Source: Candidatus Wukongarchaeum yapensis
GTDB lineage: Archaea; Asgardarchaeota; Wukongarchaeia; Wukongarchaeales; Wukongarchaeaceae
Assembly: GCA_016840425.1 (NCBI GenBank)
Contig: JAEOSI010000021.1
Location: 1-17,806 of the forward strand
Length of the DNA: 17,806 bases
Direction of reading: 5' to 3'
Shown here: piece by piece, positions 4,592-12,269 of the stretch
Layout: each line of letters begins with the position of its first letter
Numbering within the stretch: position 1 is the stretch's first letter
Notes under the pieces: generated by a model
What the model saw: only the letters and a program-made list of their open reading frames with translations
What the model was told of the DNA's origin: nothing
The model's database searches: none
Translations under genes and position numbers: made by a program

Positions 4592-4826
4592 CCAATACAC
4601 CCCATAAAAAAATAAAACCCCTCATCAAAAAAATCACCCTATCCTCTCCCTATCAGCTCGCAGTTTCTCCAAAACAATAAACCCACAAAAATAAACTCAC
4701 TCTAAAATTAAACTTAAAACTAAAAAACATAAACATTAAAAATAATGAAAAACCTACTCTTTACCAATTAATTGGAAAACTAATGTACGGGCCCGTAGCT
4801 CAGACTGGAAGAGCGCCCGCTTGGCA

Positions 4827-4848
4827 AGTAATAAAAAACAACCCGAAA
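4827..4848 (+). other. tRNA-Ala intron 1, canonical 37/38, 22 nt
   Basis: BHB motif: central helix TTGG(4821-24)/CCGA(4843-46), bulges CA|A and AA|T, inner helix GT/AC. Confidence 0.9.
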
Positions 4849-4864
4849 TGCGGGAGGCCGCGGG

Positions 4865-4905
4865 TGGCTGGCTGAAAACGCCGTTACATCAGCCATGTCC
4901 GCGAA
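4865..4905 (+). other. tRNA-Ala intron 2, non-canonical 53/54 (T-arm), 41 nt
   Basis: Central helix CGCG(4859-62)/CGCG(4900-03), bulges GG|T and AA|T, long inner helix including GGCTGA/TCAGCC. There is no outer helix, so this is a relaxed HBh' motif. Confidence 0.9.
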
Positions 4906-5030
4906 TTCAAATCCCGCCGGGTCCACTATGATATCCAGCCTCAGGGGGGAATTATTCCCCTCGGGCCCTCCAATGCCATTTAATCATTTTAAAATAAAAT
5001 AGAAAGAGGAACCCTTAAAAAACAAAAAAA

Positions 5031-8109: not shown

Positions 8110-8242
8110 TGGCGGGCCCGACGGGATTTGAACCCGCGACCACCAGCTTTCATCACGAAAACTCAGAAATCAACTATGATCAAGATCGTTTTAAAACGAT
8201 GTTTAGAAGGCTGGTGCTCTTTCCAAACTGAGCTACGGGCCC
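8110..8242 (-). tRNA. tRNA-Arg(TCT) with a 55-nt canonical 37/38 intron; CCA encoded
   Basis: Minus strand reads GGGCCCG-TA-GCTC-AGTTTGGAAA-GAGC-A-CCAGC-CT-TCT-A-[intron]-A-GCTGG-TGGTC-GCGGG-TTCAAAT-CCCGT-CGGGCCC-G-CCA. A20 (Arg identity), G73 and a short variable loop are present. Confidence 0.95.
8149..8203 (-). ncRNA. tRNA-Arg intron; candidate intron-encoded box C/D (K-loop) guide RNA
   Basis: BHB central helix CTTC/GATG with one U.U mismatch. The intron contains CTGA (8166-8163), a 6-nt loop and GTGATGA (8156-8150), plus a degenerate box C TTGATCA (8183-8177). The intron is well supported; the guide function is inferred. Confidence 0.5.
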
Positions 8243-8366: not shown

Positions 8367-9011
8367 TTAAGGCATCTTTTGTATTTTTGCTCCGATTTTT
8401 TTTGCTATGAATGCTGCGATATCGACAACTTTTTTTGCCTTTTTTATAACGGGGAAATCACTCGTAGCCACTATCTCACCTTTTAACACTTCAAAATCCG
8501 GTGATTTAACAGCTTTTGCTTCTCCCCTTAACCCATATTTTTCAAGCATTGTTCTAGTTTTTGCCGCTAATTCCCCGCTCTTAGACACCGGACTATCATA
8601 ATATATGTGAATCTTTTTTGGTGAACATGCCTTTATCGTTTTTAGAAACAATTCTAACGCTTCATCTGTTTTTTTGGTCTGTTTATATTTTCCGAAGACA
8701 CCGCTTATATCACGCACTACCCCATCATCGCAAAGAAAAATGGGTCTATTTGTCAAAGCACTTTCCACGGTAATCAAAACACAATAGCCGTCAACTGTTA
8801 AAAACATCCCATTAATCGCTTCTATCGGCACAAGTCTTTTCTTCGTAGTTTCGATCTCAGATTGGGAATAAACCGCTCTCCGAAGCAAGTTACGATCATT
8901 TACAGATAAAGAATACCGGTCTCCGACAAAATTAACAACCCTTTCCCTAGGGTATTCCCTATTAAGAAGATACCGTACATCCTCAACTATTTCCCTAAAC
9001 GGATCCACCAT
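8367..9011 (-). CDS. DUF434-family protein (C-terminal PIN/NYN-like domain), function unknown
   Basis: DVRYLLNREYP...FVGDRY, TVDGY-x-VLIT-x-ES, CDDGVVRD and VATSD motifs typical of DUF434. ATG 9011 (MVDPF) is preferred over 9047. Confidence 0.8.
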   Translation of the reverse strand: MVDPFREIVEDVRYLLNREYPRERVVNFVGDRYSLSVNDRNLLRRAVYSQSEIETTKKRLVPIEAINGMFLTVDGYCVLITVESALTNRPIFLCDDGVVRDISGVFGKYKQTKKTDEALELFLKTIKACSPKKIHIYYDSPVSKSGELAAKTRTMLEKYGLRGEAKAVKSPDFEVLKGEIVATSDFPVIKKAKKVVDIAAFIAKKIGAKIQKMP

Positions 9012-9130
9012 GGCAACACAGACCCAAAAAACATTAAAGGAAAACATATCCCTAAAAACCTTTAAAAATAACTGTTATCAACCATGTTCTCCCAAATTCC
9101 TCCCAAAATCTACTTTAAACTCCCTTTATT

Positions 9131-9210: not shown

Positions 9211-9540
9211 TTAGCCAAACAAGCTCGCTAGACCTGCTTCTTCTTCTGCTGCTTCTTCCTCTTCTGGTTCTTCTTTCTTTTCCTCTTTCTTCTTCTCTTT
9301 TTTCTTTGGTTTTTCTTCCTCAACGGCTGGAGCAGCTGTAGCTGGCGCTACTGTTGGCGCTACCGTACCTGCTGACGCTATCACTTCTTCAATTTTTATG
9401 CTTTTCAGTGTTTCAACTATTGCTTTCAACTGTGCGGCATCCACGGTGCCACCAGCAGCCTCAATAAGCTTTGCAAGATTCTCTTCTGTAATCTCTTTTC
9501 CCAAACTGTGGAGCAATAATGAGGCATGAATCGACTCCAT
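9211..9540 (-). CDS. rpl12: Ribosomal stalk protein aP1 (archaeal L12)
   Basis: ASLLLHSLGKEITEENL N-terminal domain, Ala/Pro hinge, acidic tail ending AGLASLFG; GGAGGT SD. Confidence 0.97.
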   Translation of the reverse strand: MESIHASLLLHSLGKEITEENLAKLIEAAGGTVDAAQLKAIVETLKSIKIEEVIASAGTVAPTVAPATAAPAVEEEKPKKKEKKKEEKKEEPEEEEAAEEEAGLASLFG

Positions 9541-9855
9541 TTCAAACTTACCTCCAGTCTCTTTTTTTAAAACAGTATCACGAAACTAGGATAATACTCT
9601 ATATGCAAACAATCAAAAGTTAAAAATCTTTGTCTTTTCAAATCATTTTCTAATACTATAAAAACATTGCACTAATGTCGCTAAGAAAGCTTATGAATTT
9701 ATTCACAAGATAAACAGTCATCCGCCGGATTCTTCTCTGAAATCCGTCATACTTCTTTTTTATTGTCGTCTTAGAAGTTTACAATATAATATCAGCAATC
9801 TCCCGCACCTTTCGTTCTCTCAAAGCACTCCTGTAACAATCCGTCAGCTTGCCCT

Positions 9856-10920
9856 TTAAGGAAACTCTCCTACTTCTTTCTTTTCAACCTTTTTTTCTTT
9901 TTCTTTGATGGTTTTCTCTAAGCTTTCTGGAAGAATGTCAGGATTTATTTCGGTGATCTTTTTAAGCAATGCTCCTGCCTGATTTTTGGCTTTTAGAAGG
10001 ATTAGTTGCGCGTTAACTTCGGTAACCATGTTTGCTTCAGTCGCCAAAGCTAATGCTTGATTTTGCCCCTTTAATAGGAGCATTGGAGCGGTTATCTGTA
10101 TCAAGGCTTCCGGCTTTCTCGCTATTATCACTTGTTTCAGCGCTTCAATTTGGCTCTGAGCTTTCGCAAGAAGTGGGAGCAAAGTTGTGGGTGTAACTAC
10201 GTTTGTCACTATTGCTAAACTCTGTGATTGGGTACAAGCTTCACTTAAAAGGCCTAAAACGTCCATCATCAAATGTTTTTCAGTAAATATAACCCCATCA
10301 TCATAAGCCGCTTCTATTGTTAACCCTGTCTCAAAAGGCAAAATCCCTAACCTTGCAAGGACAACAACTTTGTGCCTTGCTATCTTCTCCCCCTTTTGTA
10401 TTATCACAGTATCTCTTAAAATAGCAATTTGGCCTTTCACTATTCTGGTAGGCAAAGCTACCGCTGAAAACTCCCCAATTATAGGGCCAGGTGGAAGTCC
10501 TGTGTTTTGTTCAGGAATAGTAACATCTTTCGGCGCTATTTGCCCAACTTTTGCAGGGGCAGGCATTTTATTCTCCTCCAAAAATTTCGCCAAATAAAAA
10601 ACATCCCCATCCGTCAAAATCAGCGCATAATTACCGACAGAATAATATTTCATAAGCTCAGTGATGTTAGGTTTTTCTTTAGAAAGCTTGCGAAGCGATA
10701 TCTCTAAAAGGTTCTTCTTAACCATTTTTATGGTAGCTTTTCCCCGCAAGCTCGCCCGCATTTTTTGCACTATGCGAGCAGGTATGCCGGTCATCCTGAC
10801 TAAACCCACAATTTTATGGTTTTTAATAAGCTGGCATATCTCCTCTACCGCTTTCAATTTAGCTTCAGAAACTTTTCTTCGCGGTCGCATTATAACCCTT
10901 TCAACCTCAGATATCGACAT
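9856..10920 (-). CDS. rplP0: Acidic ribosomal protein P0 (uL10)
   Basis: KMVKKNLL and TGLPPGP motifs, repeated C-terminal spine helices, GGTGA SD, position between rpl1 and rpl12. Confidence 0.96.
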   Translation of the reverse strand: MSISEVERVIMRPRRKVSEAKLKAVEEICQLIKNHKIVGLVRMTGIPARIVQKMRASLRGKATIKMVKKNLLEISLRKLSKEKPNITELMKYYSVGNYALILTDGDVFYLAKFLEENKMPAPAKVGQIAPKDVTIPEQNTGLPPGPIIGEFSAVALPTRIVKGQIAILRDTVIIQKGEKIARHKVVVLARLGILPFETGLTIEAAYDDGVIFTEKHLMMDVLGLLSEACTQSQSLAIVTNVVTPTTLLPLLAKAQSQIEALKQVIIARKPEALIQITAPMLLLKGQNQALALATEANMVTEVNAQLILLKAKNQAGALLKKITEINPDILPESLEKTIKEKEKKVEKKEVGEFP

Positions 10921-11777: not shown

Positions 11778-12269
11778 TTAAGTTAACATCTCATCAATCA
11801 TTCCTTCATCAATCGTTTTCTGAACTTCTCGCGGATCTTTTCCTTCCACAGTTACACCAATACTAACACAAGTACCCAGAACTTCTTTAACCGCACCTTT
11901 TAAATTGATCGCTAACATATCCTTATTTTTCGATTTAGCGATTATAACAACTTGTCCAAAGCTAATATCACCAGCAATTTCTTTGCCTGCATTACCTGAA
12001 CCCTTAACATCTCCTCCCAAAGACAATTCGCTAAGAATCAAGGCAGAGGTAGGCGGAGTACCAACCTCAATTTTAAACGACTTATCATCCAAGTTAACTT
12101 CTACCTTGACCGGGACTTTTAATCCTGCAAAACCTTTCGTTTCCTTATTTATCGCATCAACAACCTGCGTCACATTTACTCCCGTAGGACCCAAAGCAGG
12201 ACCCAGAGGAGGCCCCCCACTAGCCTTACCAGCAGTAACCAACGCTTCAACTACTTCTGTTCTCGCCAT
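11778..12269 (-). CDS. rpl11: 50S ribosomal protein L11
   Basis: GKASGGPPLGPALGP, GLKVPV, PPTSAL and EVLGTCVSIG motifs. Confidence 0.97.
   Translation of the reverse strand: MARTEVVEALVTAGKASGGPPLGPALGPTGVNVTQVVDAINKETKGFAGLKVPVKVEVNLDDKSFKIEVGTPPTSALILSELSLGGDVKGSGNAGKEIAGDISFGQVVIIAKSKNKDMLAINLKGAVKEVLGTCVSIGVTVEGKDPREVQKTIDEGMIDEMLT

Follow-up and report, generated by a model that had tools for sequence, protein, structure and literature searches.

The ribosomal stalk anchor P0 (uL10) of Candidatus Wukongarchaeum yapensis has a fourth spine helix, and this helix is real, derived and confined to one species-level clade. It looks built like a docking site for a dimer of the stalk protein aP1, a predicted binding that rests on the pattern of its residues and on a complex prediction in the weak range, and the P0s that carry it have lost their own C-terminal tail. 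The chances seem to us about even that a nonameric archaeal stalk, P0(aP1)8, arose recently in one Asgard species through the insertion of a fourth site, and that this lineage also lost the tail of the anchor.

How many translation factors can be kept near the GTPase centre of a ribosome depends on the copy number of its stalk proteins. Eukaryotes, whose closest relatives are the Asgard archaea, have a two-site stalk. The archaeal stalk number has been treated as fixed, with three dimers and the P0 tail making up seven sites (PMC7768734), and only bacteria are known to vary, between four and eight (PMC12179292).

The P0 gene and its neighborhood

The P0 gene occupies positions 9856 to 10920 on the reverse strand of the window (the whole stretch of 17,806 nucleotides that was analysed) and encodes 354 amino acids followed by a TAA stop, as defined by the open reading frame, the Pfam domains and the match to Pyrococcus P0. 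Both the Ribosomal_L10 domain (PF00466, 8e-18) and the archaeal/eukaryotic insertion domain (RL10P_insert, PF17777, 1.3e-18) were found, and the best solved match in the HMMER search was P0 of Pyrococcus horikoshii (3A1Y chain G, 7e-45). The gene lies within the L11-L1-P0-P1 cluster, whose order is kept in the relatives. On the same reverse strand, uL11, the stalk-base partner identified by Pfam, comes first in the cluster (11778 to 12269), uL1 lies upstream of P0 (10995 to 11690), and the gene of the stalk protein aP1 is found at 9211 to 9540, encoding 109 amino acids with an intact AGLASLFG tail. The approximately 100 bases upstream of aP1 are conserved with relatives in the DNA alignment, and aP1 itself is almost unchanged, its helix alpha-1 differing in one residue from that of G001, the three-helix genome of the same genus.

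Paralogues of P0 or P1 that might serve different sites were looked for, and none was found in the genome of the window (2.16 Mb in 277 contigs, 92% complete), which yielded one P0 gene and one Ribosomal_60s (aP1) gene. Directly after P1 lies a gene for a DUF434/DUF5616 protein (8367 to 9047, reverse strand), as it does in loci L034 and L039. The window also holds two tRNA genes, at 8113 to 8242 (reverse strand) and 4789 to 4925 (forward strand), and at lengths of 130 and 137 bases both contain introns.

Four spine helices, one of them inserted

An earlier note on this DNA had placed four copies of the helix motif at residues 224, 250, 281 and 307, with spacings of 26, 31 and 26 residues, and a recount on the translation agrees. 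AlphaFold2, run with a 25-row alignment, predicted four separate helices of 19 to 22 residues each (221-239, 247-267, 274-295 and 304-325), with low confidence along the spine (pLDDT about 48-63), which is what we expect of a spine modelled on its own. Based on this model and on the sister alignment, helix 1 was assigned to positions 10204 to 10260 of the reverse strand, with residues L225, A228, S232 and L235 of the 221-239 segment as predicted contacts. The extra helix 2 falls within a 31-residue insertion (10087 to 10179, reverse strand, residues 248-278; predicted contacts L251, A254, I258 and L261), which comprises the helix itself (predicted 247-267) and a longer linker, KPEALIQITA. Helix 3 (10036 to 10101, reverse strand, residues 274-295) has L282, G285, A289 and L292 at the predicted contact positions, and helix 4 (9946 to 10011, reverse strand, residues 304-325), with L308, A311, A315 and L318, is followed by the conserved cap EINPDILPE. 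In the HMMER alignment, the first two spine helices of Pyrococcus P0 are matched by helix 1 and the beginning of helix 2. None of the four corresponds to the connector helix of three-site P0s. The protein thus departs from the three binding helices of archaeal aP0, and the claim that it stands one helix above the archaeal norm is upheld by the three helices counted in G001 and in six sister P0s (P0004-7, P0005, P0021, P0023).

The comparison drew on P0s from 29 other Asgard genomes and a large protein collection, with G001 as the only genome of the window's genus. G001 and the sister P0s are 71-76% identical to the window P0, and each has an acidic hinge and a DLSSLFGQK-type tail; the sister records carry the label Hodarchaeota or Asgard group, and NCBI records near-identical to the window P0 that of Candidatus Wukongarchaeota. 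At 90% identity, the window P0 clusters with sequences from NCBI, JGI, ENA and Logan assemblies, 16 in all; the 31-residue insertion is shared by every full-length one, which makes 14 near-identical proteins from at least five studies.

Aligned at the DNA level, the insertion corresponds to one clean gap of 93 bases in G001. On its two sides, helix 1 matches sister helix 1 (26 of 32 residues identical in G001), helix 4 matches the terminal sister helix 3 (25/32), and helix 3, which evolves fast, matches sister helix 2 (15/32). Given this comparison, helices 1, 3 and 4 are the counterparts of sister helices 1, 2 and 3, and helix 2 is the newcomer. The proposal that a 57-residue unit of two repeats had been duplicated did not hold, since the relatives differ by the single 31-residue insertion, i.e., by helix 2 alone, and since all pairs of helices are about equally alike (6-11 identities in 32), with no pair standing out. 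The lower identity of helix 3, 15/32 against 25-26/32 for helices 1 and 4, means either that the surroundings of the insertion evolve much faster or that helices 2 and 3 arrived as a block.

As for the source of the insert, its DNA resembles neither other parts of the gene nor the gene of G001, the best local matches being 9-20 bases long, and a phmmer search with residues 236-290 against 1.84 billion representatives returned nothing at E <= 0.001. From the DNA matches and phmmer, a recent tandem duplication could not be demonstrated, and nor could a foreign donor. The best resemblance of the insert, a weak one, is to the terminal helix with its NPD-IL cap (KPEAL versus NPDIL).

The inserted helix as a candidate aP1 site

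In the archaeal crystal structure, as discussed in PMC3616719, positions -5, -2, +2 and +5 of each spine helix contact alpha-1 of both aP1 chains, and in silkworm P0, glutamine at -5 and +2 abolishes dimer binding (PMC3616719). At these positions, 24 canonical helices from eight Asgard genomes have L/I, A (rarely V), A and L, and 15 helices from sister species have L, A, A/S and L. All four helices of the window P0 present hydrophobic or small residues there, namely L/A/S/L, L/A/I/L, L/G/A/L and L/A/A/L. The bulky residue at +2 of the inserted helix (I258) is locally unusual; silkworm helices have V222 and L248 there, both bulky (PMC3616719).

Scored in register against the 15 sister helices, the inserted helix reaches z = 3.0, a score attained by 0.26% of 20,000 shuffles and by 0.05% of 24,176 windows from unrelated proteins. 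Its hydrophobic moment is 0.29, versus 0.15-0.32 in the other helices. At the same time, it is by far the most divergent of the four, with a PSSM score of 13 versus 35-40 for the other three. It has a lysine just after +5, where canonical internal helices have alanine or serine, and the linker that follows is atypical, being longer and having no YPT-like motif.

Within the clade, L251, A254, I258 and L261 are invariant among eight distinct DNA sequences. Seven codons of the insert vary, four of them with synonymous changes only and three with conservative replacements (A/S, Q/H, V/A). Pairwise pN/pS is 0-0.32 in the insert versus 0.30-0.38 in the rest of the spine, values based on at most three substitutions per class, such small counts following from P0 nucleotide identities of at least 97.2% in the clade. 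The clade is thus very young, and the conservation of the insert carries little weight.

Moreover, we ran a single complex prediction in which residues 243-281 were combined with two aP1 N-domains (26-row alignment). The score of 0.37, versus 0.03 for the best of three controls, lies in the weak range; agreement between runs is 81% of contacts or more, and the partner pLDDT is at least 58. In the calibration, 58 of 80 solved complexes passed, as did 2 of 110 mismatched pairs, and passing scores of 0.60 or under included 7 of the 80 solved complexes and both mismatches, so that passes in this weak range are wrong more often than right unless the guess was already likely. Since a homologous complex, 3A1Y, has been solved, the pass may also reflect likeness or memory instead of binding.

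Loss of the P0 tail

In archaea, P0 and aP1 normally share one type of C-terminal factor-binding tail, so that the stalk has seven sites (PMC7768734). The window P0 is without this GLxxLFG-type tail and terminates in KKEVGEFP. Of the hinge, a short remnant rich in lysine and glutamate is left (9859 to 9945, reverse strand, ending in VGEFP), and the acidic stretch and the DLSSLFG-type tail are missing. A hidden or frameshifted tail was searched for in every frame of the 315 bases before P1 and none was found, the segment having been replaced. The replacement covers about 235 bases (9645 to 9879, reverse strand) that are unrelated to the matching stretch of the relatives in the DNA alignment, and it displaces the acidic hinge, the P0 tail and a 34-residue zinc-ribbon ORF present in L031 and G001. 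A mobile element was considered for this segment, which occurs once in the genome and has no match among Rfam families. In the relatives, the displaced ORF lies between P0 and P1 (about 4930-5035 in L031, with an equivalent in L002 of G001), encodes two CxxC pairs resembling a zinc ribbon, and has a gene call in L039; it is absent from 9645-9879 of the window.

The tail was lost in two ways within the clade. In the members of 354 residues, the window included, it disappeared through the replacement of about 235 bases, and in those of 364 residues the leucine codon TTA of the tail has become TGA, with SALFGQK and a stop still in frame behind it. The same TGA stands in seven loci (L031:4886-4920 and the corresponding position in L034-L039) and could be a nonsense mutation that arose very recently or else a candidate stop for read-through at a low level. 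Overall, the tail is absent in 14/14 four-helix forms and kept in 7/7 three-helix forms of the sisters. As the four-helix forms are close kin, this association represents one or two evolutionary events and not 14. The account of P0 in the earlier note was accordingly right about the extra helix but overlooked the loss of the tail in all four-helix forms. An anchor without a tail is plausible, given that the activity of silkworm dimers in vitro does not depend on the P0 tail, which is dispensable there (PMC3616719).

Variety of P0 architecture

A 24-residue repeat HMM derived from other Asgard lineages proved unsuitable for counting helices, because those of the window's genus score near zero against it; we therefore used spine length, taken as the distance between the insertion domain and the onset of the low-complexity tail. 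Among about 160 P0s from Asgard, DPANN and other groups, a spine of about 125 residues was found only in the 14 cluster members, and true three-helix forms of archaea have spines of 108 residues or shorter. A scan of 400 Asgard species genomes gave a match in 369; the 20 longest open frames among the 150 matches listed of these were all three-helix forms with long tails or upstream read-through, and a tail-less four-helix form, at about 340-355 residues, may still sit among the unlisted matches. No other four-helix P0 was seen among the roughly 180 P0 sequences inspected, and in the full-text literature outside subscription journals we found no description of an archaeal stalk with four dimers.

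Several Asgard families have two spine helices, the eukaryotic number, and many Asgard P0s are tail-less while aP1 keeps its tail. Examples are the two-helix forms without a tail in L016, L022, L024 and L017, the two-helix forms with a tail in L003 and L008, and the three-helix forms without a tail in L007, L019, L025 and L028-L030. In L059 (G147:C128), P0 ends in two tandem tail motifs, GLGGLFG and NLGNMFG, about 20 residues apart. Five longer proteins (P0030, P0035, P0062, P0065 and P0084, with 468-588 amino acids) have three helices followed by 200-300 residues rich in lysine and glutamate, and in the first three of them a repeated KKGTLR motif takes the place of the LFG tail; these records are unlabelled, and other matches of the same search are labelled Woesearchaeota or Nanoarchaeota. 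Since the phylum also holds two-helix and tail-less P0s, Asgard stalk architecture looks unusually variable.

A proposed stalk with eight aP1 tails

We propose that the 31-residue insertion between canonical helices 1 and 2 gave rise to a fourth amphipathic helix, in which the contact residues for the aP1 homodimer retain their two-fold symmetry. Each of the four helices would then bind one aP1 dimer through the N-terminal domains, with a fourth dimer occupying the new helix at a stoichiometry of 1:8, and the recruitment of translation GTPases would fall to eight aP1 tails, where six from aP1 and one from P0 are usual. Because the four-helix forms have lost the P0 tail, the predicted count is eight, versus the usual seven, and not nine. 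If the new site is used, the stalk would be P0(aP1)8 with all eight tails coming from aP1, and this is the reading that we somewhat favour.

The strongest alternative takes the inserted helix as a spacer that binds nothing and makes the spine longer or more flexible between site 1 and sites 2-3, leaving P0(aP1)6 with six tails. It would account for the divergence of this helix from the other three, the atypical residue after +5, the spacing of 31 residues and the proline in the linker, and the tail-less P0s with two or three helices in other Asgard lineages indicate that fewer tails are tolerated in the phylum. However, a spacer does not need to mimic a site, and the segment is amphipathic (moment 0.29), with all four contact positions hydrophobic or small as in real sites and invariant in the clade; in addition, the complex prediction was a weak pass (0.37 versus 0.03) and not a failure. 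We therefore regard a spacer as possible, if rather unlikely.

Less probable still, and in our view improbable, is a helix that is partly or conditionally occupied, or that binds a partner other than aP1, which would give a heterogeneous stalk with six to eight aP1 copies. The weak pass of the complex prediction settles occupancy neither way, the isoleucine at +2 and the lysine after +5 depart from the local consensus, and the conserved region upstream of P1 means that its supply could be set apart from that of P0, all of which would suit such a stalk. Against it, we found no candidate for an alternative partner and no sign of regulation in the sequence, the zinc-ribbon ORF being also present in three-helix G001 and absent from the window. 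The last alternative, in which the insertion and the cut-off tail are artefacts of assembly or sequencing, or marks of a decaying gene, could appeal to a fragmented metagenome-assembled genome of 277 contigs and a disrupted tail region, but it is close to refuted by the recurrence of the insertion in 14 proteins from independent assemblies of at least five studies and by an intact frame, strongly conserved N-terminal domains and more synonymous than amino-acid changes in the only P0 gene of the genome, P0 being essential.

If the P0(aP1)8 stalk is true, it would represent a natural trade, one more stalk dimer against the anchor's own tail, and archaea would have their first counterpart to the range of four to eight stalk proteins in bacteria. 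The four-site P0 and its three-site sister, at 76% identity, would form a matched pair for studying the effect of an extra dimer, the redundancy of the anchor's tail with the tails of the dimers, and the birth of dimer sites. In scope, this is a variant of a known stalk system, confined to one young clade and with a predicted aP1 site.

Comparison with known stalk systems

The closest known system is the heptameric stalk of Pyrococcus horikoshii, aP0(aP1)2(aP1)2(aP1)2 (3A1Y), with which the window shares the protein family, the L11-L1-P0-P1 cluster and the -5/-2/+2/+5 pattern (PMC7768734; PMC3616719), the partner in both being an aP1 homodimer with a GLxxLFG tail. The window P0 differs in having four helices instead of three, in one spacing of 31 instead of about 26 residues, and in lacking the C-terminal tail that gives Pyrococcus its seventh factor site. 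Nearest in sequence are the three-helix P0s of the same genus and its sisters (G001, P0005 and P0021), which are 76% identical overall, with the same gene order and 78-81% identity in helices 1 and 4, but do not have the 31-residue insertion and have retained both the acidic hinge and a DL(S/N)SLFGQK tail.

The eukaryotic pentameric stalk, P0(P1-P2)2, has a homologous anchor and spine-helix binding mode, and its +2 position is bulky and hydrophobic, like that of the inserted helix (PMC3616719). Eukaryotes, however, have two sites for heterodimers and a tail on P0, whereas the window has four putative sites, a single P1 gene and no P0 tail. In bacteria, stalk copy numbers vary naturally from four to eight (PMC12179292), and in the bL10(bL12)8 stalk, found mostly in cyanobacteria, the number is raised, as proposed here, by a spine that is one dimer site longer (PMC12179292). 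However, bL12 is not homologous to aP1, and the bacterial anchor carries no tail itself; the likeness of the proposed Asgard stalk to this system is one of principle and not of membership.
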